IMG/VR virus record: IMGVR_UViG_3300036884_000676
From: a virus
Lineage: Duplodnaviria > Heunggongvirae > Uroviricota > Caudoviricetes
Length of the DNA stretch: 64,000 nt
Direction: 5' to 3' (one strand)
Notes under the pieces: generated by a model
Told to the model about the DNA's origin: nothing
The model's input: the letters and a program-made list of their open reading frames with translations, nothing else
Database searches by the model: none
Position numbers and translations under genes: made by a program
In this document: positions 3,638 through 56,074 of the stretch, in pieces
How positions within the stretch are numbered: position 1 is the stretch's first letter
How the letters are laid out: the number at the start of each line of letters is the position of its first letter

Positions 3638-5617
3638 ATGTTAGAGAAATATAGTATTTTTGTAGTTCAAATCCCTACCAACATGGAAAAGTCAGATAGA
3701 ATCGTGAGTGATTACCCTACATTTCTCAAAGAAGAAGCCCAAAATCAAGAAGTCGGAATAGGTACTCGATTCTATCATCAGAATGGATGGTGGGTTGTAA
3801 AGAGTAAAGGAATTCCTGACCATTGGGGATGTGTAAGCGAAAAGACTAATGCATTCGTGACCTTTTCTACTCAAGAAATTCTTGATTCTGAAAATCCAGT
3901 TGATGACAATCAGGGTAAAGATATAAAATTATTCTATACCGTAGAAACAAAGAGGATTGAGATTCCTGTTGGTAGTGATACACACAAAAGTAGTGACGAT
4001 AAGAAAAAAACATTTGAAAAAATATTCAGAAGAATAGCGAAAGTATCCAAGTTTATTAAAGTCCCCGAACCCACACTTACTCTTATTGAAAAGAAAAAAT
4101 ATTTCGCCTGTTGTCATCCAAGTGAAAGAGGATTATCATACGACAGGAAAACCGTTTCAAAGAAAGAAAAACCAGAAGAAACAGATAGGGTGGTGATTGT
4201 TTATACAGATATAAACGAAGCCACCGATAGATGTAATTTTCTCAATAAAGATTCTATTGAAAAACAAAAAAAGTCAAAATTGGGAATGGAAGTTTGGAAT
4301 GATGATGAAGATAATAAATTGTTTGAACCTTGGAGAGTAGTATCCAAAGAAGTTGAAGTATATGACCTGAAAATGGCTACCGTCCTTAAACCTGAGGATG
4401 AATGGTTAATTTTGGGTACTATTGATCACAAAGACGGACTTTTGAAAAATGCTCCGGGTCAACAAGTTCCAATTAGTTTAGTTCCTGACCAGATGATAGG
4501 TCATTCATATTGTGATCATTGTAAAAGAACCATATACAGAAACAAGACTGTTTTTGTTCAGAAAATAAAGACAGGTGAGATCCTCAGGGTTGGGGGTTCA
4601 TGTATTCGTAACTATTTGGGATATGATTATGAAAAGGTATTATCCTATTTAACCGATATTTCATTCCTTGATGAAAGTTACGGTGATTTCGATGGTGGTG
4701 GTGATGATTGGGATGAAGGATTTAGTGGTGGTTGGGGTCCAAAATTTGATGTGGAGATCTCAACTAATGAGGTAATCAAGTATTTCTATTGGTTCTACAA
4801 AAAGAATGGATATATGTCCAAAGCAACAGCTGAGAAGATTAATCAAAAAAGAGACCAAGATTATCTCGCTGACCCTGATCATCCAAAAGAAGAATATTAT
4901 AATAAAAAAGAAGTTAAATCAACATCAGGTAGAGTACAAGATGATGTTGATTACGCTCATAACCCCCCTGACAGAAGAAATTATCATGGTAAAAGTTCAT
5001 CAGAATATCAAGAAGATTTTAATAGATGGTCTGATTTTGTCACAATATACAATGAGAGATTAGAAACCACATCCGATGAAGAATTACAATGGGTTATTGA
5101 TTTCATTCACGCCAATCGTGATAATAACTTCATCTTTAACGCCAGTAACATGATTAAGGCCGGTGCCGTTCAGAAACATCTCCTGTATTACATTACAGGT
5201 GCTTGTTCTTGGTACTTCGGTAAACTCTCTCAGGAAGATAGGAAAAGAAGAGAAGCTGAAGAAGCTCTCTCTGGTGGTAAGAAAGAATCAGAATATGTTG
5301 GTACAGTTGGAGAAAAATCAAGACTTGAAAATCTTGAAGTGGTTCATATCAGTGGATACCAAACAGAATGGAATTGGTCAAATGTATATAAATTAAAAGA
5401 CCAGATAGGAAATATTTATACTAAGTTTGGTACTATTGGTTCTCAGTTCATTGTAAAACCTACTGAACAAGGTAGACAAAAAGACGAACAGGGGAATCTC
5501 ATTATTAATGATATTTTAGTAGGTGATGTGGTATCAGCTACAGCTGAAATTAAGAGACATGAGGAATATCAGGGAAAGAAACAAACCACTCTGGGTCGTT
5601 TTTCAAAACTTAAATAA
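3638..5617 (+). CDS. large hypothetical protein
   Basis: 659-aa uninterrupted ORF with a Cys pair (CDHCKRT...GGSC). No family recognised. Confidence 0.5.
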   Translation: MLEKYSIFVVQIPTNMEKSDRIVSDYPTFLKEEAQNQEVGIGTRFYHQNGWWVVKSKGIPDHWGCVSEKTNAFVTFSTQEILDSENPVDDNQGKDIKLFYTVETKRIEIPVGSDTHKSSDDKKKTFEKIFRRIAKVSKFIKVPEPTLTLIEKKKYFACCHPSERGLSYDRKTVSKKEKPEETDRVVIVYTDINEATDRCNFLNKDSIEKQKKSKLGMEVWNDDEDNKLFEPWRVVSKEVEVYDLKMATVLKPEDEWLILGTIDHKDGLLKNAPGQQVPISLVPDQMIGHSYCDHCKRTIYRNKTVFVQKIKTGEILRVGGSCIRNYLGYDYEKVLSYLTDISFLDESYGDFDGGGDDWDEGFSGGWGPKFDVEISTNEVIKYFYWFYKKNGYMSKATAEKINQKRDQDYLADPDHPKEEYYNKKEVKSTSGRVQDDVDYAHNPPDRRNYHGKSSSEYQEDFNRWSDFVTIYNERLETTSDEELQWVIDFIHANRDNNFIFNASNMIKAGAVQKHLLYYITGACSWYFGKLSQEDRKRREAEEALSGGKKESEYVGTVGEKSRLENLEVVHISGYQTEWNWSNVYKLKDQIGNIYTKFGTIGSQFIVKPTEQGRQKDEQGNLIINDILVGDVVSATAEIKRHEEYQGKKQTTLGRFSKLK

Positions 5618-5621
5618 TCAA

Positions 5622-6047
5622 TTAAACTTCATCTATAATTCTATCTGGTGGTATGTTTCTTTCTACATAAACAGCTTTACCATCTTCACCTTTTGAAAAT
5701 TGAGAACTCCATTCACTCATATCACTTGCTTCTTCATCCTTAATTAAATCATAACCTGATAAATCGACTTTCCATATTGTCATCTCTTGTGGATTATATC
5801 CATCTTCTTCATTGAATTCTTTAAACCATTCAGCATATTTCAAATCCAACCAAAAATAATTTCTTATTGGTGACATTTCTTTTTTACCAAGTCTGGAATA
5901 TCTTTCTTTTGGTATCTTTTTAATACCCTCTTTTAAAATTTTGGAATCTAATTTCGATGGAGCTACATGATAACCAACGATTATCTTCTCAGAATTCTCA
6001 TTTATACTTAAATAATCATCAAAGTTCAGAATCATCGTCACCATCAC
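5622..6047 (-). CDS. hypothetical protein
   Basis: 141-aa ORF on the minus strand. Confidence 0.4.
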   Translation of the reverse strand: MMVTMILNFDDYLSINENSEKIIVGYHVAPSKLDSKILKEGIKKIPKERYSRLGKKEMSPIRNYFWLDLKYAEWFKEFNEEDGYNPQEMTIWKVDLSGYDLIKDEEASDMSEWSSQFSKGEDGKAVYVERNIPPDRIIDEV

Positions 6048-6603
6048 TCGTTTGGAAAAAAGTATTTAAATCTTCAATATGAACTTTCTTTCTACCAGAT
6101 GATACGGGTTTTCCCTCTTCTTCTGGTTCTTCTGGAATTAAATCTTCATCATCTGGATCTGGTTTATTCCAAACATCATCTTCTTCTTCCTGTTCATGTT
6201 CTGTATTTTCATCATCAGATAATTCCTTTGGTTTAAATTCTATTTTGTAAATAAGTTCTCCACCGACTTTAGAATGACCTGATGAATCTTTACTTTTTTC
6301 TTTTTCTCTTTCGGTAGCTTCAATTGCCTGAACAAATATTAGAGTAACATCGAATTTTCTTTTCTTTGATGGACCTTCTCCCAATTCCAGTTCAAGATGT
6401 TGTTGAGGATCAACATAATTAAAATCTTCGGGATTAACTTTAAATCTTATCATATCACCATCAAAAGTTTTCTTTAAAGCATGATCAAAATTACCATCTA
6501 CTATGGTCTTTGCACTTTTGGTCACTTCTTCTGGTAATTCGGCTATAGTTGTTTTTTTATTTTCTTTAATGAAGGAATCAAAATTCATAATGAACTTGTT
6601 CAT
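6019..6603 (-). CDS. acidic internal-protein-like protein with CTS-like leader
   Basis: The probable start is the internal Met giving MNKFIMNFDSFIKE|N. The C-terminal half is strongly acidic (EEEDDVWNKPDPDDEDLIPEEPEEEG). The track ORF extends to 6654, but that N-terminal extension looks spurious. Confidence 0.45.
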   Translation of the reverse strand: MNKFIMNFDSFIKENKKTTIAELPEEVTKSAKTIVDGNFDHALKKTFDGDMIRFKVNPEDFNYVDPQQHLELELGEGPSKKRKFDVTLIFVQAIEATEREKEKSKDSSGHSKVGGELIYKIEFKPKELSDDENTEHEQEEEDDVWNKPDPDDEDLIPEEPEEEGKPVSSGRKKVHIEDLNTFFQTSDGDDDSEL

Positions 6604-6658
6604 GACTAATTGGTTTTTCTTTTTATATATTAAAATAAAAAAATCAATTTTCAACCTG

Positions 6659-7111
6659 TCAAATATAATTTACTTGAACTCCACTTTCTTCAAAAAGAAC
6701 CTGAGTTATTTTGAAATCTTCACCCCATCTTTCATCTTCGAAATTAGGCTTACTACAAAAGATAGTTGAAACACCAGATTGAATAATTGCTCTTGCACAA
6801 TCGCAACAAGGATACCATTCAATATACATAACAGAACCTCGTAGTTTTATTCCATTACGAGCCGCATTATAAATAGAGTTCCTTTCAGCGTGTTCGGTGT
6901 ACTTATATTTTACCGATCTTTCGTATCTTTCGTTAATTGAATCATCAACACCACGAGGAAATCCATTATATCCGATTGACAGAATTGCATTACTCTCAGG
7001 ATCTATAATGACAGCCGATGTCTGTGTCGATTTATCCTTACTCCATTTTTTTATAAAAGAGGCGAGATCTAAAAATTTTTTATCCCAATTTTCTAAGACA
7101 TTATTTAGCAT
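6659..7111 (-). CDS. cd: dCMP deaminase
   Basis: Zinc-binding HAE...PCxxC signature of the cytidine/deoxycytidylate deaminase family (HAERNSIYNAA...YPCCDCARAI). Size and context match T4 cd. Confidence 0.85.
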   Translation of the reverse strand: MLNNVLENWDKKFLDLASFIKKWSKDKSTQTSAVIIDPESNAILSIGYNGFPRGVDDSINERYERSVKYKYTEHAERNSIYNAARNGIKLRGSVMYIEWYPCCDCARAIIQSGVSTIFCSKPNFEDERWGEDFKITQVLFEESGVQVNYI

Positions 7112-7126
7112 TATCTAATTATTATT

Positions 7127-7450
7127 TTATTTCACCGTATGGTGCAAGAAGAAATCAAAAGTATCATCATCATAATAATACAATGTAAATACAGCGGTAT
7201 ATTGACGATTCATGTTGAAATCACTCAATTCCAGACCAGATACATCACTAACATTAATAGTATTTTTGAAAAAGACAGTTTCAAGGAATATAATTTCCTC
7301 TGGGGTTAATCCTCTTTTAAATAAATAATTGAAATTTACATGAAATCCCTGCCTTGTGTCTATGACTTTGAACTTGGATTTAAAATCCAAACCGTGCTTT
7401 AATTCTTTATCTTTTTTGTTTTCATCGAGTATATCTTCTAATATATCCAT
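7127..7450 (-). CDS. hypothetical protein
   Basis: 107-aa ORF. Confidence 0.35.
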   Translation of the reverse strand: MDILEDILDENKKDKELKHGLDFKSKFKVIDTRQGFHVNFNYLFKRGLTPEEIIFLETVFFKNTINVSDVSGLELSDFNMNRQYTAVFTLYYYDDDTFDFFLHHTVK

Positions 7451-7497
7451 AATTGTGTTTTCCCTTCAATTATTATAGAAAAAGAAAGGGAATAAGT

Positions 7498-7731
7498 TTA
7501 AGATTTTATTAAAAAATTACCTGTCTGCCACCTACCGTCTGAACATATTTCATTGAGTTGTTCGAGGCTTAGATTATTGGGGTCCCACCCTTTCTTTTTA
7601 GCATATTCTCGTTTAAAGACTTCTCTTAATTCTTCTATCTCTTTTTCCGATAAAGCGGAATCTTTAATTATTTCATATTCTTCTTCCATTTTATTTGTGT
7701 TTATTTTTAGGAACAGATTTAGTAAATACAT
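7498..7731 (-). CDS. hypothetical protein
   Basis: 77-aa ORF. Confidence 0.3.
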   Translation of the reverse strand: MYLLNLFLKINTNKMEEEYEIIKDSALSEKEIEELREVFKREYAKKKGWDPNNLSLEQLNEICSDGRWQTGNFLIKS

Positions 7732-7960
7732 TATATTTTTCGCAAAATAAATATTCTAATCTACTACCCATATCCATTACCCCTAATAAATTTTCTTCAT
7801 TCCCACCTATCATAGATTCATCATAATCTACGAAATCTTTTTTACAAGTTTCAATATCTTCAATCATGTTTTTCAAAAATTGGGATTGGTCCATATTAGC
7901 CGTTTCTATCAAATAAATAAATTCGTTAGTTTTTTTAATTGATTCTTCTTTCGTTATCAT
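7691..7960 (-). CDS. hypothetical protein
   Basis: 89-aa ORF. A tiny upstream ORF overlaps it through an ATGA junction. Confidence 0.35.
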   Translation of the reverse strand: MITKEESIKKTNEFIYLIETANMDQSQFLKNMIEDIETCKKDFVDYDESMIGGNEENLLGVMDMGSRLEYLFCEKYNVFTKSVPKNKHK

Positions 7961-8301
7961 ATTGTTATTTTATTTTTTAATGTTTCAGTACATTCTTGAC
8001 TCATTTTATCTGTGAATTTCATATTATCAATACTTTTTATTTGTATATATTAATTATTCAACATGAATACGAGTGTTTTCATTTTTTTAATTTTTCTGAT
8101 TTGTTCAAAATATATGTCCAATTAATTAAATTTGAATCCCCGATCATATTCTGAATTTCTTCATTTGTGAATCTAATATATTCCTCAGTTGTCAGGTGTT
8201 TCATTATGAATCGGAGGAGCATCAGATAATATTCCTTCTGATTTTAATTTTTCTATTTCTTTTTCCATTTCATCCTTTGTCATAAGATTTTTGATTATTT
8301 T

Positions 8302-8787
8302 TTAGTCAATATGTATACGAGAATGTAAATACATCCTTGGTGTCCATTCCTCTGTTGAAATGATACTTATTGATTGAGCGATGGTTGTAAGATACAAATT
8401 ATTTTTAGTTTCTAATTCTTTGTTTATATAGTCAACTAATTTATCAACTAATATCCTTTCTAACTGTTGAACGATGGTTGAACTATCCAAAGAAGATTCT
8501 TTAATTGCTGTTATTTGAGCACTATCAACCTCAACATCGAAACTTAAAGTTGGTAATCCTTCTTTCAATATAACATTTTTATCCTTTATATTTAATTGAG
8601 ATAGAATTTTTAAAGAAACTGGTAATAAGTTTTGAGCAATATCATCCTCACCAAGTTTTGTTACTATTAAATTTTCAATTTCATGTTTAAGATGAAATTC
8701 AGCGTATTCAGCCATAATTTTTCTAACTTTTTCGTCTGTTACTTTTAGAGCGTCCATAATAGGACTCCATTTTGTGTAAATATCCAT
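8302..8787 (-). CDS. hypothetical protein
   Basis: 161-aa ORF. Confidence 0.4.
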   Translation of the reverse strand: MDIYTKWSPIMDALKVTDEKVRKIMAEYAEFHLKHEIENLIVTKLGEDDIAQNLLPVSLKILSQLNIKDKNVILKEGLPTLSFDVEVDSAQITAIKESSLDSSTIVQQLERILVDKLVDYINKELETKNNLYLTTIAQSISIISTEEWTPRMYLHSRIHID

Positions 8788-8833
8788 AATTGTTATTTAT
8801 TATTTTTTTAATTATATATTACCTAATAATGGT

Positions 8834-9016
8834 TCAAATTATTTCGTTAGTATTTATACCTTTTTCATTCAAATATTTCCTTATAAGATTTTCCACTATC
8901 TTCGATTTATTAACTCCATTATCTTCTGATTCTTTATTTAATAAATCATACAATTTTGGATTGATTGTAACACACAATCCCTTTCTTTTATCTTCATCTT
9001 GTAATTTATGTCTCAT
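8834..9016 (-). CDS. ribbon-helix-helix (CopG/Arc-like) DNA-binding protein
   Basis: 60 aa. The segment LCVTINPKLYDLL has beta-strand-like character and is followed by two short helices. It shares the TINP motif with the divergent small ORF at 9147. Confidence 0.45.
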   Translation of the reverse strand: MRHKLQDEDKRKGLCVTINPKLYDLLNKESEDNGVNKSKIVENLIRKYLNEKGINTNEII

Positions 9017-9146
9017 AAATAAATTTTGTTTTTAGCTTTATACTAAATATTATAAAATTTGTTTTATTTATAAAATAATGTAAAAATAATTCAAAAATAA
9101 CGACTTTTGACTTTTAAATATTTATATATAAGAATAAACAATCATT

Positions 9147-9311
9147 ATGAAACAAGAAAATAAAAAAATAAGAACGACATTCACAATCAATCCCGATATT
9201 GTGAATATTTTAAATGAACAACATATCAGAAATCATTCTAAACTTATTGAATGGTTACTTCTCAACCATTTTAAAGAAGTTGATATGGATGTAAAAAATA
9301 TAATTTTGTGA
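9147..9311 (+). CDS. ribbon-helix-helix-like small protein (not in the ORF track, 54 aa)
   Basis: Manual translation: MKQENKKIRTTFTINPDIVNILNEQHIRNHSKLIEWLLLNHF... Its stop TGA at 9309-9311 lies immediately before the 9313 start. Confidence 0.4.
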   Translation: MKQENKKIRTTFTINPDIVNILNEQHIRNHSKLIEWLLLNHFKEVDMDVKNIIL

Positions 9312-9312
9312 A

Positions 9313-10407
9313 ATGGGAAAAAGTTTAACCCAAGAAGAATTTATTGAAAGATGTAAATTGGCTCACGGTGATAAATATGATTATTCTAAAACTGTTTATA
9401 AAAATAGTTATTCTAAAGTTAAAATAATTTGTAAGAAACATGGAGAGTTCGAACAATTATCATCAGGACATATAGAAGGTCGTGGATGTTCTAAATGTTC
9501 AAATAATAAAAAACTAACAATCGAAGAATTTATTGAAAGATCCATTAAAGTTCATGGAGATATTTATGATTATTCAAAAGTGAATTATATCAATTTGGAT
9601 ACAAAGGTAAATATATTATGCAAAGAACATGGAGAATTTAAACAAATACCAGAACATCATATGAAAGGTCATGGATGTCCGTTTTGTAGTAAAATGGGTA
9701 GAAAAACCACCGAACAATATATAGAAATTGCTAAAAAAGTACATAATAATTTTTATGATTATTCTCAAACGATTTTTATCAATAACAAAAAAAAGGTAAA
9801 AATAATTTGTCCGAAACACGGAGAATTTTTACAAGATCCCAAACATCATTTAAGTGGTTCTGGATGTCCATTTTGTAATATTGTAACAACTGATGATTTT
9901 ATCAAAAAATCAAAAGATATTCACGGTAATCTTTATGATTATTCAAAAGTAAATTATATTAGAGCAAACGAGAAGGTAATTATAATATGCCTTAAACATG
10001 GTGATTTTAAGCAAGTACCAAATAATCACATACAAGGCCGTGGATGTCCAAAATGTAAATTGAGTAACGGTGAAAAAACTATAAATAAATTTTTGTCAGA
10101 TAATGATATTAAATTTGAAATACAGAAAAAATTTAATAAATGTATATTTCAAAAATATTTAAAATTTGATTTTTTCCTATTTGACTATAATATTTGTATT
10201 GAATATGATGGGGAACAACATTTTACACCAATAGATCATTTCGGTGGGAAAGATAGATTTGAAATAACAAAGATAACTGACCAAATAAAAACAACATTTT
10301 GTGAAAAAAATGGTATATTCTTATTGAGAATAAATTATAAAGAAAATATAGAAGAAAGATTACAATGGCTGATGAATTATTTGAAAACACCAATAAAAAA
10401 GAATTAG
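9313..10407 (+). CDS. repeat-containing PD-(D/E)xK (Vsr/DUF559-like) nuclease, homing-endonuclease-like
   Basis: Five tandem repeats of about 48 aa (YDYSK.NY...KV.IIC.KHGEF.Q.P..H..G.GCP.C) and a C-terminal FDFFLFDYNICIEYDGEQHF motif. The C-terminal motif resembles the restriction-endonuclease-like fold of Vsr/DUF559 family nucleases. Confidence 0.5.
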   Translation: MGKSLTQEEFIERCKLAHGDKYDYSKTVYKNSYSKVKIICKKHGEFEQLSSGHIEGRGCSKCSNNKKLTIEEFIERSIKVHGDIYDYSKVNYINLDTKVNILCKEHGEFKQIPEHHMKGHGCPFCSKMGRKTTEQYIEIAKKVHNNFYDYSQTIFINNKKKVKIICPKHGEFLQDPKHHLSGSGCPFCNIVTTDDFIKKSKDIHGNLYDYSKVNYIRANEKVIIICLKHGDFKQVPNNHIQGRGCPKCKLSNGEKTINKFLSDNDIKFEIQKKFNKCIFQKYLKFDFFLFDYNICIEYDGEQHFTPIDHFGGKDRFEITKITDQIKTTFCEKNGIFLLRINYKENIEERLQWLMNYLKTPIKKN

Positions 10408-11582
10408 ACATTAACTACATTGTAAATATTGTTCAAAGTGTCTTAGATAAAGTTCATTCTAATTCTCAAAAAAAAATGTTAAAAATAAGACCCAATGAAC
10501 AAACGCCCAAGGAAATTTCAATGGCCTGTGCAGTATGTGGAGATAGTCATGATAAAATGAATGCCAAGCGTTCACATTTATATTTAAAAAATATGTATGT
10601 GAAGTGCTATAATGAACAATCGTGTAGTATGTTTTTTACTAAATGGTGTGATCATTTTGGTATTAAATTAGATCCAGAAAAAAAACTTCAAATTTATGAT
10701 TACATAAGTCAAAATATTTCCTTTACTTCGAAAGAAGATTTCGCTGTTGAAAACTTAGACAGATTATTAGATGCTAAAGAATACATGGATTTTTTAAATT
10801 CTCGTAAGGGGTGTTTTCTTACTAATATATCACCAATAAAAAAAGGTTCATTTGCTTTTGATTATTTGAAAAAAAGAAAAATTCAGAATTATAGTAATAT
10901 TCTTCAAGGAATCTACCACATTACTAATCGATGGGCTGAGTCTGTCATTATTATATTAAACCGAAGAGGAAACAAGTTACTTGGTTTTCAATTAAGAAAT
11001 TTGAAAGACGATAAAACTAAAAGAATTTATAAGGAATATGAGTTTGAATATTTGTATAACTATAAGAACACGACTGATTCCTTGGATGAACTGGAATCAA
11101 TATCATATAATAAACTATCCCATTTATTCAATATATTGAATGTTGATTTTAATCAACCAATAAACGCCTTCGAGGGTTATTTGGATAGTGTTTTTTTTCC
11201 TAATTCTATATCGTTAATTGGATTGGATACAAATATAGATCTTATTCAGAATGACAATCTGGAACTTCGATTTGTTTTTGATAATGATGAACCGGGATTA
11301 CGAAAAGCTAAGAAAATGTTAGAACAGGGAAAATCCGTCTTTCTGTGGCGAAAACTTATTGATGATTTAGCTAAGGGGGATTATGTTTATCTCAATACCC
11401 TCAATAACATAAAAGATATGAATCAATTAGTTATTTTACTGAATAATCCAAATATTTATTTTGATTTGAATCTGGAAAATTATTTTTCAAGAGATAGATT
11501 TGATATGATTTATTTGGAAGATATTACTAAGAAAAAAACAAAAAAGACTGATCCGTCTCAATGGGATAATATCATTTTGTAA
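10365..11582 (+). CDS. DNA primase (T4 gp61-like)
   Basis: Zinc ribbon CAVCGDSHDKMNAKRSHLYL...VKCYNEQSC, compared with T4 gp61 CPVCGDSKTDQNKARGWYY...IHCYNC. TOPRIM-like motif FVFDNDEPG, compared with T4 VLDNEPRHP. The true start may be the internal Met at 10476, because 10365..10407 overlaps the upstream gene. Confidence 0.8.
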   Translation: MADELFENTNKKELDINYIVNIVQSVLDKVHSNSQKKMLKIRPNEQTPKEISMACAVCGDSHDKMNAKRSHLYLKNMYVKCYNEQSCSMFFTKWCDHFGIKLDPEKKLQIYDYISQNISFTSKEDFAVENLDRLLDAKEYMDFLNSRKGCFLTNISPIKKGSFAFDYLKKRKIQNYSNILQGIYHITNRWAESVIIILNRRGNKLLGFQLRNLKDDKTKRIYKEYEFEYLYNYKNTTDSLDELESISYNKLSHLFNILNVDFNQPINAFEGYLDSVFFPNSISLIGLDTNIDLIQNDNLELRFVFDNDEPGLRKAKKMLEQGKSVFLWRKLIDDLAKGDYVYLNTLNNIKDMNQLVILLNNPNIYFDLNLENYFSRDRFDMIYLEDITKKKTKKTDPSQWDNIIL

Positions 11583-11630
11583 ACTTCTATCCTATTAAAA
11601 TGTATAAAGTAAAAAATATTTCAGAATATA

Positions 11631-12410
11631 ATGGCTAAAAGTGAGAATATTAAATTTGAAATTTCACAATCAAATTTAAAGAAATTATTAGATAAGATAA
11701 AGGATTTGGCTAAGATTCATGAGAAGAAAATTGTCGTAATGAAATTCGAAAAAGACAGTTTAATACTCTTTTCATTTGTCGGAAAAACTTTCAAAAATAT
11801 TTATGCCTTTAAAAATTATATTTTCAAATATGATGAAATTTTTAGTTTTATTACAGATATACCAGAACCAGTTTCATATATAGCAAAGAATGGTATAAAG
11901 CTTTATCATACCATAAATCAGTTTTTAGAATATGATTCGGTAAGTTGTGAAATATCTGTAAGTAATACAGCTCCCGGATTTGCTGATTCGTGGAGAATCC
12001 ATCATGAAGATATTTTCGATACAACATTGATAGCTGGAGATAATCTAATTGTCGGGAAAGACATTAATATGGATGATATTAATCGTCTAATGGACACATC
12101 AACTGCTTTATTTAATTTTAATCTATCCAATGCTAATTATGAAAAGATAAAGAAAATGTCAACGATTGATGTAAAGGAAAATGACATTCTTACAATCACT
12201 GTTGAGAAGAATAAATTATATATGGGTGAAAAATGGAGATTGAAGATTTCTGATAATATAGAACAACCTGATTATACATATACATTTCCAAAAAGATACT
12301 TTAATACCATCTCGACCACAACCGATATTGAGATTTTTGTTTTTGAACAGTATATTCTTACTAAATATGATGATTATAACCTCATGATAGTGTTAGAAAC
12401 CTCAGTATAA
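11631..12410 (+). CDS. hypothetical protein
   Basis: 259-aa ORF downstream of the primase. It shows weak, unverified resemblance to the gp45 sliding-clamp C-terminus. Confidence 0.4.
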   Translation: MAKSENIKFEISQSNLKKLLDKIKDLAKIHEKKIVVMKFEKDSLILFSFVGKTFKNIYAFKNYIFKYDEIFSFITDIPEPVSYIAKNGIKLYHTINQFLEYDSVSCEISVSNTAPGFADSWRIHHEDIFDTTLIAGDNLIVGKDINMDDINRLMDTSTALFNFNLSNANYEKIKKMSTIDVKENDILTITVEKNKLYMGEKWRLKISDNIEQPDYTYTFPKRYFNTISTTTDIEIFVFEQYILTKYDDYNLMIVLETSV

Positions 12411-12464: not shown

Positions 12465-12902
12465 ATGCAGATGTATAATCTTTTTCTCGATGATGATAGG
12501 TTTCCGTTTAATGGGGGTACAGATGTTCCCGTTGATTTCGAATTAGACAGTGCTTATGATTTGACAAGAGATAAAAGATATAAAGATCTTGATTGGGTAA
12601 TCGTCAGAAGTTTTCCACAGTTTGTTGAGATGATAGAAAAAAGAGGATTACCAGAAATGATTTCTTTTGATCACGATCTTAAAGATGAACATTATTATCA
12701 TTACAGAACATTCACAATATTTACTGGTTGGATTGATTATACCGTAGTAGAGGGAACAGGACATGAATGTGCAAAATGGTTAATTAATTATTTACTTAAT
12801 AACGATTTGGATTGTCCTACAATTCTTATACATACACAAAACACCACAGGTGCAAAAAATATCTGGAAACTATTTGAAAACTTTAATGAAAACAGGAAAT
12901 GA
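12465..12902 (+). CDS. hypothetical protein
   Basis: 145-aa ORF. Conserved-looking motifs are LFLDDDR, ISFDHDL and TGHECAKWL. No family assigned. Confidence 0.4.
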   Translation: MQMYNLFLDDDRFPFNGGTDVPVDFELDSAYDLTRDKRYKDLDWVIVRSFPQFVEMIEKRGLPEMISFDHDLKDEHYYHYRTFTIFTGWIDYTVVEGTGHECAKWLINYLLNNDLDCPTILIHTQNTTGAKNIWKLFENFNENRK

Positions 12903-14392
12903 AAACGACAAATATTTTCGAAGTTGATGTTGACGGTTTACGCCAACTTCAAGAAGGTAAACCGAAATGGTTTATCATTCGTGAACTTCTTCAAAACGCA
13001 ATCGATGAAAACATTACAACCTGTGATATTCATCTGGATTGGCAACGAGGAAAGGCCTTTATTCAGGTCAATGATGATTCACCTACTGGATTTCGTGATT
13101 TATCCGATGCTTATACTCTTTTCAAAGACACATATAAAAGAAGTGATGTCAAGAAAAGAGGAAGATTCAATTTCGGTGAAAAACAGGTATTGTGTCTTTG
13201 TGATTCCGCCACCATTTTAACTACTACGGGTTGTGTTGAGTTCGATATTAAAAAGGGTGTTAAGACCCTTACTAAAAACAAGACACCAAAGGGTAGTATG
13301 GTTTTTGTAACCGTAAAAATGACACACGAAGAATTCGTTGAATGTTGTAAATACTGTGATAGTATCCTTGTTCCTGATAATATTAAAGTTGATATCATTG
13401 TCGGAAATATGGGGGCTGGTATTGAAAAAGTAGATGGTCATGATTGGATGGGAACAGTCGCGAAGGGTACATGGAAAACCTTGTCTTATCAGAAACCTCA
13501 TAAAATCTTCACCACTAAACTCCCAACTGAATTGAAAGAGGGTGATAGAATGAGGAATGTTACAAGGGAAACCGCTGTTCATATTCATAATAAGAACGGT
13601 TCAGCTTATATTTATGAAATGGGTATTCCTATCTGTGAAATCGAATGTGATTATTCAATTGATATTCAACAGAAAGTTCCCCTTTCTAATGATAGGGATA
13701 AAGTGGATGGTAAGTACCTGAAAGTTCTTTATGGTGAAATCCTAAATCATACTCATGAAGAAATTACCGAAGAACAAAGTAGTCGTATCTGGGTAAGAAC
13801 TGGAACTACATCTGATAGAGTAACAAAAGAAACCGTTCAGGATGTTATTACTAAACGATTCGGAGAAAATGCTCTTATCGCTAATCCATTAGATCCAAGA
13901 AGTATGGACGAAGCCATTAGTAACGGACACAATGTTATTTATGGTAGGGAAATGGATAAGGATGAATGGACAAAAGTAAAAGGTTTCGATCTCCTTGAAA
14001 CAACTTCTCAGAAATATAAAGTAGGTATCACCGAAAGTAAAAAGGTAAATCCCTCAGACGATCAGAAAAAAATAGCTGAATTCGCTAAGAAAATATCTAA
14101 AGAATTCTTACACTTTGATCTGAGTGTTGAGTTCATATCATCATCTGATGCTTCAACAGTGGCTGATTTCGGTGGTAATAACCTACGATTTAATGTTCCA
14201 AAGATAACCAAGTCAATGTGGACACCATCAGAAGATGGTTATATCAAACAAACCATGTTAGACCTTCTCATTCATGAAATAGGACATAAGGCTGGATGGC
14301 ATTATGAACACGCTTACCATGAATGTATTACAAAACTTGGTAGTCAGTTAACAATTAAGGCATTAACTGAACCAAATTGGTTCATTTTATAA
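12899..14392 (+). CDS. GHKL/sacsin-like (HATPase_c_3) ATPase domain fused to a C-terminal HExxH metallopeptidase-like module
   Basis: N-box IIRELLQNAIDE, G1-like NDDSPTGF and G2-like RGRFNFGEK. The C-terminus carries HEIGHKAGWHYEHAYHE. Confidence 0.5.
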   Translation: MKTTNIFEVDVDGLRQLQEGKPKWFIIRELLQNAIDENITTCDIHLDWQRGKAFIQVNDDSPTGFRDLSDAYTLFKDTYKRSDVKKRGRFNFGEKQVLCLCDSATILTTTGCVEFDIKKGVKTLTKNKTPKGSMVFVTVKMTHEEFVECCKYCDSILVPDNIKVDIIVGNMGAGIEKVDGHDWMGTVAKGTWKTLSYQKPHKIFTTKLPTELKEGDRMRNVTRETAVHIHNKNGSAYIYEMGIPICEIECDYSIDIQQKVPLSNDRDKVDGKYLKVLYGEILNHTHEEITEEQSSRIWVRTGTTSDRVTKETVQDVITKRFGENALIANPLDPRSMDEAISNGHNVIYGREMDKDEWTKVKGFDLLETTSQKYKVGITESKKVNPSDDQKKIAEFAKKISKEFLHFDLSVEFISSSDASTVADFGGNNLRFNVPKITKSMWTPSEDGYIKQTMLDLLIHEIGHKAGWHYEHAYHECITKLGSQLTIKALTEPNWFIL

Positions 14393-14399
14393 AACACAT

Positions 14400-14648
14400 A
14401 TGTACAAAAGAGAATCATTAAAAACCAGATGTAAAAGGTGGGTTGGATCAATGACAAGATCCGACAGACCAACATGGGTGGAATTATTAAGTGCAGATTT
14501 CTCTTGGTTTCCACCTTTGGTTTCTTCGAGAACTGGAAAGAAATATGAAGAATGGAAAGAGTGTGTTGAAGATGCTACTGATGATGAATTGGAAAAATTA
14601 TGGCATGAAATTGAGGAATACAGAATGAGAAAATTATATGAACATTAA
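14400..14648 (+). CDS. hypothetical protein
   Basis: 82-aa ORF. Confidence 0.3.
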   Translation: MYKRESLKTRCKRWVGSMTRSDRPTWVELLSADFSWFPPLVSSRTGKKYEEWKECVEDATDDELEKLWHEIEEYRMRKLYEH

Positions 14649-14710
14649 GATTATATTTTTTTTATTGAGATTTTTTACTTATTATTGTAATAATTATAAA
14701 TGAAATATTT

Positions 14711-14926
14711 ATGTTAACTGAAGTGATCGAGGCACAAACCTACCTCAAGAAAAAATTCAATGGTAATGATGTCCCAGCTGGAACTTATGCCATTCCAACA
14801 GAAACAAGTAAAGGTAAGGCTTTCATGAAAGTTACAGTAAATCCAGAAGGATATTTGGGTGGATTTGATTTATTTTGGGATGAAGAGTTCACTCAATCTT
14901 GGTATGAAAAGAAAAATAAAAAATAA
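14711..14926 (+). CDS. hypothetical protein
   Basis: 71-aa ORF. TATAAAT lies at 14695..14701, just upstream. Confidence 0.3.
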   Translation: MLTEVIEAQTYLKKKFNGNDVPAGTYAIPTETSKGKAFMKVTVNPEGYLGGFDLFWDEEFTQSWYEKKNKK

Positions 14927-14938
14927 AAATAAATTCAA

Positions 14939-15409
14939 ATGGTAGGAACAATATTAATTATTATCGGTATCATTGTAGTACTTATTGTACTTGGTTGTAT
15001 TTGGGTTTCGAGAATACGAAAGAGAGAATCGGCTAAACCGTTCCCTGAACATCCACCTATACCTTTCTATACAGATCCTTACGCTACTAAAAAATTTCCC
15101 AGCCACACAAACCCACTTCCACCTCCTCCCCAAATAAATCCACTTTCACCCCCACAAGAGGATGATGGATTCACTACTTCTATGGCAATAGGTGCACTTA
15201 CAGATAATGCTTTATTGGGGACAGCCTTGGGTGGTAATATGGCCGGTGCCATGATTGGTCAGGAATTACATGATATAATGGATACTCCACCATCACCACA
15301 AGATGAACAACCCTCAGACATATCTCCTGATACACCCGATACACCCGATACACCCGATACTCCCGATACCGATTTCAATTCGGATTCGACATCAGTTTCA
15401 GATTTTTAA
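14939..15409 (+). CDS. membrane protein with Pro-rich region and DTP repeats
   Basis: N-terminal TM helix (VGTILIIIGIIVVLIVLGCIWV). Pro-rich middle. (DTP)x4 encoded by a 9-nt tandem repeat at 15329..15370. Confidence 0.45.
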   Translation: MVGTILIIIGIIVVLIVLGCIWVSRIRKRESAKPFPEHPPIPFYTDPYATKKFPSHTNPLPPPPQINPLSPPQEDDGFTTSMAIGALTDNALLGTALGGNMAGAMIGQELHDIMDTPPSPQDEQPSDISPDTPDTPDTPDTPDTDFNSDSTSVSDF

Positions 15410-15442
15410 AAATAAAAATTAATTTAACAAAAATAAATTATT

Positions 15443-15658
15443 ATGACAACAAAAACTAAAATTATCATTTGGGCGATAGTACTATTCGTATTATTCGTGA
15501 TTGGTTTCTTCTGGTTATTGAGCCACGCCTTCGTCATCATGACATTCGGAACTATTTTTAAAATTGCCGGAGCCTTTATCCTTGCAGTATTTATTTCTTA
15601 CTGGATTGGTTATGGGGTTTGTCATCATAAAATAACTACGAAAAATGAAAAAGGATAA
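15443..15658 (+). CDS. small membrane protein (2 TM)
   Basis: Two hydrophobic helices. Confidence 0.4.
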   Translation: MTTKTKIIIWAIVLFVLFVIGFFWLLSHAFVIMTFGTIFKIAGAFILAVFISYWIGYGVCHHKITTKNEKG

Positions 15659-16073
15659 AATTAAAGAATGTATTGGAGAATGTAAATTCAATTTATATGT
15701 GAGTTTATTTCTATTCTTCGGATTCTGGTTCATTTTCATGTTTTTCTTGGCCTTCGTAATTAGTTGGTGGTCTATTCCAATTGGGATTTTTATGGGATTA
15801 CTTGTCACAATTACAAGAGGTGGGGATGCTTATTTTACTTATCAGGATTCAACAACAAATGTAAATGTGGGTCAAATGACCAGTTCATCTTCCAAGTTGA
15901 GTTATATCAATTTAAAAATAGTTGGGGATAGTGATGAATTTGGTAAAATGATTTGTAAGGTTGAAAGTATTGATGGTAAATATATTGATGGTGTTACACT
16001 GAAATTACCTAAATCTGAAATTTTCGTGAAGAAAAGATACTTTTGGAAACAAACTTTTAAAGCTATCGGGTAA
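15645..16073 (+). CDS. membrane protein
   Basis: Two or three hydrophobic segments in the N-terminal half. Confidence 0.4.
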   Translation: MKKDKIKECIGECKFNLYVSLFLFFGFWFIFMFFLAFVISWWSIPIGIFMGLLVTITRGGDAYFTYQDSTTNVNVGQMTSSSSKLSYINLKIVGDSDEFGKMICKVESIDGKYIDGVTLKLPKSEIFVKKRYFWKQTFKAIG

Positions 16074-16264
16074 TGAAAATGAAAATACCAGTAGCAATAA
16101 TAGTTTTTGTTACGATGTTATTCGAATTTTTAATGAGTATTTGTTTGTTCATTGTACAGGATTACATTATGTCCATAGTTTTATTCACTATATCTGGAAT
16201 ATTATTTTGGATATTAATAATTTTAATTAAAAAACTAATAAATGAATCTCGAAGAGAAGATTAA
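16073..16264 (+). CDS. small membrane protein
   Basis: 63 aa, two hydrophobic helices. ATGA overlap with the upstream gene. Confidence 0.35.
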   Translation: MKMKIPVAIIVFVTMLFEFLMSICLFIVQDYIMSIVLFTISGILFWILIILIKKLINESRRED

Positions 16265-16688
16265 TTCCGATATCAAAGAATCAATTTTAAGACAAGAAAA
16301 CGAAAAATTAGAGGCTCTTAGATTGATTAAATCTACTATTCAGGTTGAAAAAGCCAAAGATGGTAAAGAACTATTGACTGATGAACAAGTAATGAAAGTT
16401 ATTCAGAAAATGGTTAGTCAGAGTACAGAATCCGCTACTCAATATGCTCAAGGGGGTAGAGTGGATTTGGTTGATCATGAAATGCTTCTTATTACAGTCT
16501 ATAAAACATATCTTCCAGAACAATTATCAGTTGAAGAAATCACTGAAAAAGTGAAAGAAATCATAACTGAAACTGGAGCCACTTCAATTCGTGATATGGG
16601 TAAGGTGATGGGTGTGGCCACCAAATTCTTTTCTGGTCGTGCAGATAATAAAACTATTGGTTCAATCGTAAAAACTATACTATCATAA
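16242..16688 (+). CDS. YqeY/GatB-like domain protein
   Basis: Close match to the GatB_Yqey domain pattern: LRLIKSTIQ...LTDEQVMKVIQKMV...YKTYLPEQLSVEEITEKVKEIITETGATSIRDMGKVMGVATKFFSGRADNKTIGSIVKTIL. Confidence 0.8.
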   Translation: MNLEEKINSDIKESILRQENEKLEALRLIKSTIQVEKAKDGKELLTDEQVMKVIQKMVSQSTESATQYAQGGRVDLVDHEMLLITVYKTYLPEQLSVEEITEKVKEIITETGATSIRDMGKVMGVATKFFSGRADNKTIGSIVKTILS

Positions 16689-17227: not shown

Positions 17228-17398
17228 ATGAGTAAAGAAGATTTATTAAAAATATGGCAACAAAGGGCAAAAGAATTACACGAAATTGCTGATAATGAGA
17301 GGATAAATTTTCCAGATAGAATTGAAGCCGGTGCAAAAGCAAATCAATTATTACAATGTATGCTCGATATAAAACAATTTTTAGAGGAAAAAATATGA
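17228..17398 (+). CDS. small hypothetical protein (56 aa, not in the ORF track)
   Basis: Manual translation: MSKEDLLKIWQQRAKELHEIADNERINFPDRIEAGAKANQLLQCMLDIKQFLEEKI. Its stop overlaps the PPK2 ATG in an ATGA junction. Confidence 0.3.
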   Translation: MSKEDLLKIWQQRAKELHEIADNERINFPDRIEAGAKANQLLQCMLDIKQFLEEKI

Positions 17399-18237
17399 AT
17401 ATAAAACAATTTGAAATAAACGGTAAGGGAAAAGTTGATATTAATTTAAATGATATTGATTTGAATGATGTCGATTCCGATATTACCGAACAAATAGAGG
17501 GGAACATAAAAAGCCTCATTGATTTACAGGATAAGTTATATGCTGATGGTAAATATTCAATACTATTAATTATTCAAGCGCTTGATACGGCTGGTAAAGA
17601 CGGAATCGTTAAGCATGTAATGTCGGGTCTTAATCCCCAAGCAACTCAGGTTTATAGTTTTAAACAACCCACTTCAGAGGAATTGAATCATGATTTCTTA
17701 TGGAAAGCTCACAAAAGTTTACCAGAGAGAGGACACATTGGTATCTTTAATCGTTCCTATTATGAAGAAGTTCTCGTAGTTAAGGTTCATGATCTGATAA
17801 AATTTCAGAGAATTCCAACCGTTTTGATTCATAAGGATATCTTTGAAGAAAGATATGAACAGATAAGAAATTTTGAAAAGATGCTTCATAAAAATGGAAC
17901 AGTCGTTATAAAAATATTCTTGAACATATCCAAAAAAGAACAAAAAGAAAGATTACTGGAGAGGATTGATGATAAATCTAAGAATTGGAAATTTTCGGAA
18001 TCTGACTTAAAAGAGCGTCAGTTCTGGGGTGATTATATGAAATGTTATGAAGATCTGATTAATGAAACATCCACCGATGATTGTCCTTGGTATGTTGTTC
18101 CGGCCAATCATAAAAAAACATCACGACTTATTGTTTCGAAAATTTTGGTTGAGAGAATGAAAAAATTAAATCTGGAATATCCTCAATTAACAAAAGAGCA
18201 AGAACAGAATTTATTGAAATGTAAGGAACAATTATAA
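17395..18237 (+). CDS. ppk2: polyphosphate kinase 2 (PPK2)
   Basis: PPK2 Walker A-like motif ALDTAGKDG and a conserved core (SFKQPTSEELNHDFLWKAHKSLPERGHIGIFNRSYYEEVLVVKVH). The probable start is the ATG at 17395 (MNIKQFE) rather than the track start at 17356. Confidence 0.85.
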   Translation: MNIKQFEINGKGKVDINLNDIDLNDVDSDITEQIEGNIKSLIDLQDKLYADGKYSILLIIQALDTAGKDGIVKHVMSGLNPQATQVYSFKQPTSEELNHDFLWKAHKSLPERGHIGIFNRSYYEEVLVVKVHDLIKFQRIPTVLIHKDIFEERYEQIRNFEKMLHKNGTVVIKIFLNISKKEQKERLLERIDDKSKNWKFSESDLKERQFWGDYMKCYEDLINETSTDDCPWYVVPANHKKTSRLIVSKILVERMKKLNLEYPQLTKEQEQNLLKCKEQL

Positions 18238-54202: not shown

Positions 54203-54706
54203 ATAAATATTAGAATCATCTATATCCCAACTTCCATCATTTTTAATATTCTTAATATAATTCGGGTAAAACATAATAAAATCTTTTCTAATTACATCAA
54301 TATCAGTATTGGACTTTTCAATAATTATACCATCATAATTTAACAATATCTTATTCTTTATATTAATTATCTCACTCTTCCATTCCTTAACATCATTCAT
54401 ATAATCAAACCAAGTTTCATAAATCTTTGGATTTTCTATTTTCAAATAAACTTTTAAAATTTTCGGATTTAATTTATTGTGTGTAAAAACTTTAGCAACC
54501 TTTAATGATTCAGTAAACCAACACCCTTTACTACAATCAAATATTTTATCAATAGTTGATTTATAATATTCACCTGTTCCGTGATAAGCAATTAATGGAT
54601 GATTATTTTCATCTACGACTTTACTTTCATCAAACCATTTATAAAAATTAGGATTTAAATTTTTATATTCTTCAAACATTTTTAGATATTTCATAGAATT
54701 TACCAT
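54197..54706 (-). CDS. H-G-T motif protein (ART-fold-like paralog)
   Basis: MVNSMKYLKMFEE... then PLIAYHGTGEY...KGCWFTESLKV. C-terminal ILLNYDGIIIEKS aligns with the other paralogs. Confidence 0.5.
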   Translation of the reverse strand: MVNSMKYLKMFEEYKNLNPNFYKWFDESKVVDENNHPLIAYHGTGEYYKSTIDKIFDCSKGCWFTESLKVAKVFTHNKLNPKILKVYLKIENPKIYETWFDYMNDVKEWKSEIINIKNKILLNYDGIIIEKSNTDIDVIRKDFIMFYPNYIKNIKNDGSWDIDDSNIYS

Positions 54707-56019: not shown

Positions 56020-56074
56020 AAGAAAGATTTTTTCTTTATATATTAAAAATTTTTGTAACCTTTTTGAATATCTG

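Follow-up and report, generated by a model that had tools for sequence, protein, structure and literature searches.

A phage protein combining a GHKL-type ATP-binding domain with a predicted zincin metallopeptidase domain, and its relatives in phages, prophage-like regions and plasmids

Related ATPases and metallopeptidases

The Hsp90 proteins (HtpG, TRAP1 and GRP94) and the sacsin SRR contain a Bergerat-fold (GHKL) ATP-binding domain. To our knowledge, no Hsp90 or sacsin carries a C-terminal zinc peptidase and no rIIA protein carries a zincin domain. The well-studied ATP-dependent proteases (Lon, FtsH, Clp, HslUV and the proteasome) are, as far as we know, all AAA+-driven. In phage T4, the rIIA protein joins an N-terminal GHKL module to a variable C-terminal region and is seen as a counter-defence factor that is still poorly understood (PMC7824862). 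Among the zincins, Wss1 and Spartan are DNA-dependent proteases (PMC4559962, PMC5128727). ArdC, an anti-restriction factor of conjugative plasmids, is an establishment protein of mobile elements that acts in the newly entered cell and carries a Spartan-like metallopeptidase domain, a gluzincin whose third ligand is a Glu, behind an N-terminal ssDNA-binding module (PMC7213743).

The protein described here joins an ATP-binding domain of the former type to a domain of the latter type. It is encoded in the window, i.e. the whole stretch of 64,000 nucleotides that was analysed (IMG/VR record IMGVR_UViG_3300036884_000676), which comes from a very large phage. Conservation is given throughout for a set of 133 distinct relatives sharing 25-64% identity.

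The gene and its product

The ORF list contains exactly the gene announced in the preliminary description, and the motifs quoted there all translate at the expected places.

12899..14392, + strand: whole gene (ATG start, 497 aa) of the GHKL-zincin protein, the founding window member of the family

The gene product is a soluble protein of four domains, namely a Bergerat ATP-binding, a beta-rich, an alpha/beta and a zincin domain. It contains no hydrophobic segment, and the net charge of every domain is acidic, in the query as in the family median. The preliminary description had judged that this was no standard T4-like gene, and indeed a tblastn search of 50,697 GenBank phage records returned a single uncultured 485-kb phage.

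The ATP-binding domain

12899..13372, + strand: Bergerat-fold (GHKL) ATP-binding domain, residues 1-158
12980..13009, + strand: motif I, RELLQNAIDE (residues 28-37), with E29 as putative general base and N33 as putative Mg ligand, from conservation and alignment to motif I of MutL and HtpG
13070..13093, + strand: variant motif II, NDDSPTGF (residues 58-65), with D59 as putative adenine-binding Asp, from conservation
13157..13183, + strand: motif III, RGRFNFGEK (residues 87-95), end of the ATP lid, from conservation and alignment with GQFGVGFYS of HtpG
13223..13231, + strand: motif IV, T109-T-G111, from conservation

The N-terminal domain has the alpha/beta sandwich of the Bergerat fold, and structure models were obtained with pLDDT of 87 and 91. 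RELLQNAIDE fits the GHKL motif I pattern ExxxNxxD; E29 is kept in 93% of the relatives and otherwise replaced by D, N33 in 99% and D36 in 100%. The Asp and Gly of motif II (DxGxG) are present in the variant form D59-D-S-P-x-G64, in which D59 and G64 are both 100% conserved and the following F65 95%. In the glycine-rich motif III, R87, G88, R89, G93, E94 and K95 are each 99-100% conserved (G88, G93 and K95 100%), and the Thr-x-Gly of motif IV is less constant (T109 83%, G111 89%). All the catalytic motifs of a Bergerat domain are intact, and ATP binding and hydrolysis are predicted from them.

The nearest relative of this domain is Hsp90 by profile and MutL and ParE by fold. The best profile match is HtpG (hhalign E 3.5e-6, probability 87.6%, over HtpG residues 27-211), which disposes of a non-GHKL fold for the N-terminal region, and the motifs follow one another in the same order as in Hsp90 and the sacsin SRR. 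The protein is nevertheless no member of the Hsp90 family: PF00183 gave no match at E<=1, the N-domain alone aligns to HtpG, and there is no significant sequence match to Hsp90 beyond it. Its ATPase part is also shorter (about 385 aa against about 620 in Hsp90), and its second domain is nearly all beta, unlike those of Hsp90 and sacsin. Of the named families, Pfam SACS and NCBIfam sacsin score best. The label 'Sacsin/MORC-like' and the HATPase_c_3 assignment of the preliminary description hold as far as the Bergerat motifs and fold are concerned, but denote a resemblance and not a membership, since the protein falls short of the curated thresholds for HATPase_c_3, SACS and NCBIfam sacsin (21.0, 18.1 and 27.2 bits against 25 for PF13589, 32.8 for PF25794 and 50 for NF047352).

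Membership of the MutL family was likewise rejected, as the likeness is at the level of the fold only: TIGR00585 scored 12 bits against a cut-off of 180, and hhalign aligned motif I only (probability 6.9%). Sequence searches of the PDB with the single sequence and with a profile returned only a marginal match to MutL motif I (E 0.5). Compared with MutL, GyrB and ParE, the phage protein has no Toprim, endonuclease or DNA-binding domain, and all its domains are acidic. Foldseek also matched rIIA proteins (E 3e-8 to 1e-6), which in the list obtained are 615-1,054 aa long, against 497 aa here; the TM score of only about 0.3 limits this match to the N-terminal module. No rIIA PHROG matched, and orthology with rIIA was not retained.

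The middle domains and a candidate sensor loop

13373..13684, + strand: beta-rich second domain, residues 159-262, occupying the place of a transducer or middle domain
13670..13696, + strand: loop QKVPLSNDR between the last strand of the second domain and a long helix, candidate gamma-phosphate sensor, from conservation and the secondary structure of the model
13685..14053, + strand: helical and alpha/beta middle domain, residues 263-385, with W298, G322, D332, A339 and G343 conserved

The second domain contains an invariant YEMGIP motif (E240, G242). It also contains an insert modelled with low confidence (residues 169-190, nt 13403-13468). This insert reaches its greatest length in this phage, and 30 aligned relatives lack it or have a shorter one. 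With the second domain included, the score exceeded that of the N-domain alone by just about one Z unit, which makes the label 'transducer-like' tentative. The domain that follows weakly resembles the C-terminal dimerisation domain of Hsp90.

In the loop after the second domain, Q258 and R266 are 100% conserved, position 259 is always K or R and P261 is kept in 97% of the relatives. By analogy with the Lys of the GyrB QTK loop or the catalytic Arg of Hsp90, we infer that it may sense the gamma-phosphate. The invariant R266, with Q258 and K259, could not be aligned by sequence to the PLNVSRE loop of HtpG. Residues 150-400 gave no significant hhalign match to the M and C domains of HtpG (E 0.42), and the equivalence of the PLSxDR loop with the PLNxSRE loop of Hsp90 is therefore kept hypothetical.

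The zincin domain

14054..14389, + strand: minimal zincin-fold metallopeptidase domain, residues 386-497
14273..14302, + strand: predicted metal-binding and catalytic motif HEIGHKAGWH, of the form HExxHx4H, from conservation

The C-terminal domain is made of a backing helix, a three-stranded sheet, an active-site helix and a C-terminal helix. With the HExxH borne by the active-site helix and followed by a third metal ligand, this arrangement is that of the zincin clan. The preliminary description had pointed to an HExxH with additional His and Glu residues in the stretch HEIGHKAGWHYEHAYHE (residues 459-475, nt 14273-14323). The HExxHx4H part proved conserved (H459 96%, E460 97%, H463 97%, H468 97%), with an aromatic residue at position 473 in 95% of the relatives, whereas H471, H474 and E475 are not conserved and Gly466 is kept among the closer relatives only. 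The C-terminal tail of the protein holds a conserved PxWF. The motif thus does not lie in a variable, unstructured tail; its losses are few and mostly concern truncated ORFs.

Assignment to a particular zincin family is less direct. Neither Pfam WLM (PF08325) nor SprT-like (PF10263) matched the protein at E<=1; as a positive control, a SprT-like ORF of the window (34434-35225) matched PF10263 with E 4.1e-8. The top matches of the domain are Wss1 and Spartan. However, the spacing of the third His is x4 in 97% of the members, whereas the WLM motif is HExxHx5H, with a spacing one residue longer. Compared with the WLM/Wss1 and SprT/Spartan zincins and the archaeal minigluzincins, the phage protein has no zinc-binding or basic DNA-binding subdomain and no SUMO- or ubiquitin-binding motifs, and it is fused to an ATPase. 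ArdC offers a parallel in general layout, as it too places an N-terminal targeting or handling module before a metallopeptidase and ArdC-type genes, like this family, occur in phages and T4SS-associated regions; its module nevertheless binds ssDNA and is no ATPase, and no homology was detected between the two proteins.

Distribution and conservation of the family

A word index gave 1,104 matches to the 497-aa protein, and a profile search returned 2,074 representatives at E<=1e-3 (1,061 at E<=1e-30), that is about 2,000 matching clusters counted at 50% identity. Nearly all of the best 150 of the 2,074 representatives match end to end, are 465-515 aa long and share the same architecture. The association of ATPase and zincin is fixed across this large family. 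Strong purifying selection acts on both catalytic sites: N33, D36, D59, G64, G88, G93, K95, Q258 and R266 are 99-100% conserved in the 133 relatives and the residues of HExxHx4H 96-97%.

Homologous fusions, a search for which had been proposed, are carried by phages (many of them larger than 200 kb), prophage-like regions and plasmids. They include 80 IMG/VR loci, on contigs of up to 417 kb, and members in the cultured bacteria Picosynechococcus PCC 7002 (plasmid pAQ6) and Methylibium petroleiphilum PM1. Among the Pfam, NCBIfam and PHROG models, none was above its cut-off for the window protein or named a function; the only PHROG hit was a weak one to phrog_6077, whose function is unassigned. 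Some homologues have precomputed matches to PF13589 or PF25794. WP_011831646.1 and WP_012308608.1 are among the members of the family. GenBank product names hold no functional annotation for the family, and no description of a family combining GHKL with a zincin, metalloprotease or SprT domain was found in the literature, subscription journals being mostly outside reach.

Genomic context

12465..12902, + strand: cREC_REC gene, 145 aa (Pfam PF20274, E 5.9e-18), whose stop overlaps the start of the GHKL-zincin gene (ATGA)
14368..14394, + strand: terminator-like hairpin and T-run across the stop codon, read directly from the sequence and in a consensus scan

The gene had been placed between a primase and a cluster of small membrane proteins, which is roughly right. 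A primase-like gene lies upstream (10365-11582; phrog_21887, E 6e-7), with two genes in between, a 259-aa ORF without assignment (11631-12410) and the cREC_REC gene, and ORFs with obvious hydrophobic segments lie downstream (14939-16264). The cREC_REC and GHKL-zincin genes are probably co-transcribed in this phage. The transcription unit may end at the hairpin, although the evidence is weak since the consensus scan gave 6 sites where 3.6 +/- 2.3 were expected. The promoter scan was uninformative, as it found fewer sites than in shuffled sequence.

A role of cREC as a component of the system was rejected, as a phmmer search (E up to 10) of the ORFs of 164 related loci found it only in the four copies of this same phage. 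More generally, all-versus-all BLAST clustering of 2,918 ORFs from the 164 loci gave no conserved partner gene, none being present in more than 7 of about 150 loci. A cluster of antisense-ORF artefacts in 9 loci was set aside from this count. In a Pfam and PHROG scan of 103 immediate same-strand neighbours, no family occurred more than twice. The GHKL-zincin family has no obligate partner gene. The genes around its members encode DNA methyltransferases, UvsX/RecA, clamp, dNMP and thymidylate kinases and HNH nucleases, together with series of small ORFs without assignment. In chromosomes, the copies have T4SS pilin, RadC, SNase and IS genes nearby, and the Methylibium plasmid copy is surrounded by methylases, phage Gp37/Gp68, dut and NADAR. 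The window, for its part, is accessory, conflict-rich DNA carrying four ART-PolyVal ORFs, PARG, PPK2 and RNA-repair genes.

Possible functions

At slightly less than an even chance, we tentatively favour a protein acting as an ATP-gated clamp, probably dimeric, that controls a metallopeptidase directed against proteins of the host or of the phage, in takeover or in counter-defence. The dimer would be held through the middle domain, as in the GHL ATPases Hsp90, MutL, GyrB and MORC, and the N-domains would close once ATP is bound, the gamma-phosphate being sensed by R266 or K259. This cycle would capture or position a protein substrate and gate its access to the attached zinc peptidase, leading to its cleavage. 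Made in the infected or recipient cell, the protein could in this way destroy or process particular host proteins, or possibly phage proteins. This reading draws on the structure models and the HtpG match, the joint retention of both active sites, the fixed architecture and the setting on mobile elements, mostly outside structural modules. We infer the coupling of ATPase and protease solely from their fusion and joint conservation. The variable neighbourhoods point directly to no substrate or pathway. ArdC offers a precedent for a Spartan-like protease domain on a mobile-element protein, but its protease activity was dispensable for its known phenotype (PMC7213743), so the zincin of a mobile-element protein need not be its business end.

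The kinship of the top zincin matches with DNA-dependent proteolysis (PMC4559962, PMC5128727), the over-representation of genes for DNA replication, recombination and methylation among the neighbours and the precedent of ArdC (PMC7213743) raise the alternative of a DNA-coupled protease. The GHL module would then clamp DNA in the manner of MutL, GyrB or MORC, and the Wss1/Spartan-like domain would remove DNA-bound or crosslinked proteins, possible targets being DNA-protein crosslinks, stalled topoisomerases, restriction enzymes and nucleoid proteins. We consider this unlikely, as every domain is acidic, profile scans detected no DNA-binding domain, the hhalign probabilities favour Hsp90 over MutL (87.6% against 6.9%) and the window already encodes a canonical SprT-like protein. 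Some cellular copies lie in defence-like islands, where a defence role fits as well as counter-defence. The GHKL domain would sense an invader and activate the protease, as in MORC-like or GHKL-based bacterial immunity, making the protein an effector of defence or superinfection exclusion to the benefit of the resident element or host. The family is indeed present in many copies in chromosomes and mobile elements; the pAQ6 member of Picosynechococcus, SYNPCC7002_RS15015, lies between a DisA_N-domain gene and the gene of a 1,378-aa CHAT protease, and a Rhodovastum plasmid copy lies near a SIR2-HerA island, adjoining a 3-kb helicase and a GIY-YIG nuclease. A PADLOC match to the N-terminus of Tiamat TmtA (E 1.6e-3) is weak, spans the generic ATP-binding region only and does not evidence membership of Tiamat. 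With many members on large phage contigs amid early or accessory genes and no conserved sensor or partner gene, we hold such an effector to be quite improbable.

It is very unlikely that the protein is mainly an Hsp90- or sacsin-like chaperone for phage proteins, with a zincin serving only self-processing or a maturation cleavage in the assembly of virion or replisome. The profile match of the N-domain to HtpG, the sacsin-type signatures, the resemblance to the Hsp90 C-terminal domain and two head scaffolding proteins among the 103 immediate neighbours would agree with a chaperone. However, the gene lies mostly outside structural modules and is also found where no capsids are made, on plasmids and in T4SS-associated regions, and the Glu and His of the peptidase are as conserved as the ATPase residues. 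The same conservation weighs on the notion that the C-terminal domain is a YbeY-like metal-dependent nuclease working with the RNA-repair genes (cREC, RtcB), to which we give hardly any credence: the YbeY motif, HxxxHx5H, is not known to contain a general-base Glu, and the Glu of HExxH, the general base of peptidases, is 97% conserved here. In its favour, a homologue sharing 62% identity has RtcB 5 kb downstream of it, and the overlapping upstream cREC_REC is a predicted cyclic-phosphate-processing domain (PMC7824862), but cREC adjoins the gene in this phage only.

If carried further, the ATP-gated clamp that we favour could represent a new class of energy-dependent protease, in which a GHKL dimeric clamp of the Hsp90/MutL type, in place of an AAA+ ring, would bind and hydrolyse ATP to capture specific folded proteins and pass them on to its own zinc peptidase, and by which phages and other mobile elements would eliminate host defence or housekeeping proteins; this broader proposal is speculative and we regard it as doubtful. 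If true, a GHKL clamp hard-wired to a zincin, with both sites conserved over about 2,000 clusters, would be a different solution from the AAA+ machines and would equip jumbo phages and conjugative elements with a further proteolytic weapon or tool. Defining the GHKL-zincin family would in itself annotate thousands of 'hypothetical proteins'. Although the phage of the window is uncultured, the members in cultured bacteria make the question directly testable, Picosynechococcus PCC 7002 being genetically tractable.

The ATPase-zincin protein

The gene at 12899-14392 (+) starts with an ATG overlapping the stop codon of the upstream cREC_REC gene (ATGA) and encodes 497 residues, as given in the preliminary description, whose four quoted sequence strings were all recovered by translation (residues 28-37, 58-65, 87-95 and 459-475). 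The protein is net acidic and no hydrophobic segment was found in it (maximum 19-residue Kyte-Doolittle mean 1.3). A terminator-like hairpin at 14368-14394 (+), TGAACCAAATTGGTTCA then TTTTATAAAA, spans the last codons and the stop codon of the gene.

No curated Pfam or NCBIfam model reaches its cut-off for this protein. The closest are Pfam HATPase_c_3 (21 bits for a cut-off of 25 bits), SACS (18.1 for 32.8 bits) and HATPase_c (14.7 for 26.4 bits), and the NCBIfam sacsin N-terminal model (27.2 for 50 bits). These matches are confined to residues 25-143, and the C-terminal 350 residues had none in the curated-model scans. PHROGs returned a weak match to phrog_6077, of unknown function, PADLOC a weak N-terminal match to Tiamat TmtA, and a sequence search of the PDB nothing useful.

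The predicted model shows a Bergerat-fold ATPase and a zincin among its domains. In structure comparisons, residues 1 to about 260 matched TRAP1 (11.8, 276 aa), GRP94 (11.4, 287 aa), MORC2 (10.7), sacsin SR1 (10.6) and the N-domains of Hsp90 and HtpG (about 10). The original designation as Sacsin/MORC-like, of HATPase_c_3 type, holds as a resemblance, the curated cut-offs being missed. The broader assignment to GHKL is borne out by profile comparison, the family alignment matching the entire N-domain of Escherichia coli HtpG (probability 87.6%, E 3.5e-6) with RGRFNxGEK opposite GQFGVGFYS. Against E. coli MutL, motif I alone aligns (probability 6.9%), and the profile therefore appears nearer to Hsp90 than to MutL. 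Sequence similarity to HtpG was not detectable beyond the N-domain. The beta-rich domain 2 (residues 159-262) is only tentatively called transducer-like because it adds only about one Z unit to the N-domain-only matches. Among viral models (BFVD), Foldseek found one clear relative, A0A1B1ITP9 (E 2.7e-30), followed by rIIA proteins and phage topoisomerase II ATPase subunits (E 1e-8 to 1e-6, TM about 0.3), whose likeness is limited to the N-terminal module.

The protein is a member of the GHKL superfamily and of the zincin clan. Membership of Hsp90, sacsin and MORC (HATPase_c_3), MutL, WLM, SprT and rIIA was rejected, the respective tests having failed.

Conservation of the two active sites

Conservation was first assessed among 31 relatives sharing 43-64% identity, and afterwards among 133 distinct ones that came from 164 loci and go down to about 25% identity.

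Conserved residues of the family (numbering of the window protein)
Motif I: E29 93% (otherwise D), N33 99%, D36 100%
Motif II: D59 100%, G64 100%
Motif III: R87, G88, R89, G93, E94, K95 99-100%
Motif IV: T109 83%, G111 89%
Domain 2: E240 and G242 100% (YEMGIP motif)
Loop after domain 2: Q258 100%, K259 (K or R) 100%, P261 97%, R266 100%
Middle domain: W298, G322, D332, A339, G343 93-98%
Zincin: H459 96%, E460 97%, H463 97%, H468 97%, aromatic at 473

From the last of these rows, the metal motif is HExxHx4H; the Gly of HExxHxxGxH is common to the closer relatives and is not kept family-wide. An HExxH with extra His/Glu had been proposed, of which the HExxH stands (96-97% conserved), whereas the extra His/Glu vary across the family. 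ATPase residues are never lost among relatives and zincin residues rarely, mostly in truncated ORFs, so that both sites are under joint selection. The Q-K...R loop joins domain 2, at its last strand, to a long helix. The gamma-phosphate sensor of GyrB (QTK loop), that of MutL (Lys) and that of Hsp90 (Arg) sit at such a position, and by analogy this loop is a candidate gamma-phosphate sensor.

Distribution and gene neighbourhoods

A word-index search retrieved 1,104 relatives, every one labelled 'hypothetical protein', and 1.84 billion representatives, searched exhaustively with the profile, gave 2,074 matches at E<=1e-3, of which 1,061 reached E<=1e-30. The search for homologous fusions suggested in the preliminary description showed nearly all of the best 150 listed profile matches to be full length (end to end, 465-515 aa). 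The identical protein occurs on contigs of up to 736,551 bp and the locus was met again in several samples; a very large phage is therefore the source of the window.

In IMG/VR the gene is present at 94 or more loci; contigs of 226-417 kb account for several of these and contigs of 25-60 kb for others. At least 88 were found in GTDB genomes, including Planctomycetota, Dehalococcoidia, Verrucomicrobiota, Acetobacteraceae and Solirubrobacterales, together with archaeal and CPR bins in which phage contigs may have been mis-binned. The sole match among GenBank phages is the uncultured 485-kb phage LR745208.1; no match was found at the DNA level. Plasmid members in PLSDB comprise three typical ones (Rhodovastum, Methylibium, Bosea) and three divergent ones from Picosynechococcus. 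One of the latter, WP_012308608.1 (519 aa, annotated 'ATP-binding protein'), aligns over its full length (hhalign probability 99.9%) and retains HEAAHAMNMH.

No conserved neighbour gene was found across the related loci. Immediate same-strand neighbours (n=103) are heterogeneous and lean to DNA and nucleotide metabolism, with DNA methyltransferases, UvsX/RecA, sliding clamp, thymidylate and dNMP kinases, HNH nucleases, a sigma factor and HTH proteins; head scaffolding proteins account for only two of the 103. The gene lies, in related large phages, within long runs of small unknown ORFs, with RtcB, PhoH and PolB, or NAD synthase at 5-7 kb or less. Chromosomal copies have T4SS pilin (4), SNase (3), RadC, UvrD, IS transposase and HTH_17 genes nearby, which points to integrated mobile elements. 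The Methylibium plasmid copy has DNA methylases and a phage Gp37/Gp68 gene on one side and dut, DUF4326 and NADAR on the other. That of Rhodovastum adjoins a 3-kb DEAD/DEAH helicase and a GIY-YIG nuclease, with a SIR2-HerA pair nearby. On plasmid pAQ6 of Picosynechococcus sp. PCC 7002 (5385-11856), WP_012308608.1 is the middle member of a same-strand trio, flanked by a DisA_N-domain protein (169 aa) and a CHAT-domain protease (1,378 aa); plasmids of PCC 7003 and PCC 7117 carry matching regions. In this cultured model cyanobacterium, the trio may form an operon of defence-like type.

Proposed mechanism

Both catalytic sites are conserved, the architecture is fixed, the distribution is that of mobile elements and there is no partner gene. 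The protein could act like other GHL ATPases, as a dimer whose N-domains close upon ATP; this clamp cycle would capture a protein substrate and gate the fused zincin, cleaving specific host or phage proteins once the element is inside the cell. We give this reading slightly under even chances.

Its main rival, a DNA-coupled protease resembling Wss1/Spartan/ArdC, is rather unlikely: the DNA-metabolism genes around it and the nature of its best structural neighbours speak for it, but the charge is acidic throughout, no DNA-binding domain was detected, the profile leans to Hsp90 and the same phage has a separate SprT gene. A defence or exclusion effector is less probable still, a chaperone with a self-processing zincin is improbable, and a YbeY-like nuclease very improbable.

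GHKL-effector fusions are familiar in general; a description of a GHKL-zincin fusion was not found in the searchable literature, whose coverage was incomplete. The family is large and unannotated, an unreported pairing of two well-known catalytic modules, with a clear architecture that is open to testing. Should the ATPase drive proteolysis, which we consider unlikely, the family would represent a new class of energy-dependent protease.

Other genes of the window

Conflict and accessory genes are numerous in the window (four ART-PolyVal ORFs, PARG, PPK2, YqeY, PTH2, HAD_SAK_2, DnaJ, Band_7).

9313-10407 (+), HNH/homing-endonuclease-like, 364 aa (phrog_559, E 1e-88)
12465-12902 (+), cREC_REC, 145 aa (PF20274, E 5.9e-18; phrog_1479)
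14939-16264 (+), four small ORFs (156, 71, 142, 63 aa) with obvious transmembrane segments
16242-16688 (+), YqeY-like, just downstream of the membrane-protein cluster
17356-18237 (+), PPK2 polyphosphate kinase, just downstream of the same cluster
30849-33176 (+), SPFH/Band_7 protein, 775 aa (domain at residues 458-628, E 6.8e-23)
34434-35225 (+), canonical SprT-like metallopeptidase, 263 aa, HEMIH at residue 91 (PF10263, E 4.1e-8)
50496-51380 (+), microbial-type PARG (PF10021, E 1.5e-26)
54700-56409 (-), 569-aa ORF adjoining the polymerase ORF, no Pfam match
56575-58050 (-), family B DNA polymerase, 491-aa ORF with the exonuclease domain and just the start of the polymerase domain

With the separate SprT-like ORF, the phage has two different Wss1/SprT-type zincins. 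cREC is a receiver domain of jumbo phages that is predicted to process cyclic phosphates (PMC7824862); its gene stands beside the ATPase-zincin gene only at this phage's own copies. On a 223-kb contig carrying a 62%-identical homologue, an RtcB RNA ligase gene (13797-15173) follows on the same strand, 5.3 kb downstream. Taken with the cREC gene of the window, it hints faintly that RNA-repair genes may tend to be close by. The four ART-PolyVal ADP-ribosyltransferase ORFs (best E 3e-15, count-mode scan) and PARG form an ADP-ribosylation writer/eraser set in the accessory region of a huge phage. Judging from the last two ORFs listed, the family B DNA polymerase seems to be either split or highly divergent. 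The four small membrane ORFs had no family match; the 156-aa one has a tail of PDT repeats that is Pro-rich and acidic. The size of the Band_7 protein is unusual for a phage protein of this kind. The HNH-like protein has four DUF4379 treble-clef repeats and a DUF723-like C-terminus, and the 3' end of its gene overlaps the start of a primase-like gene (10365-11582) by 43 nt.
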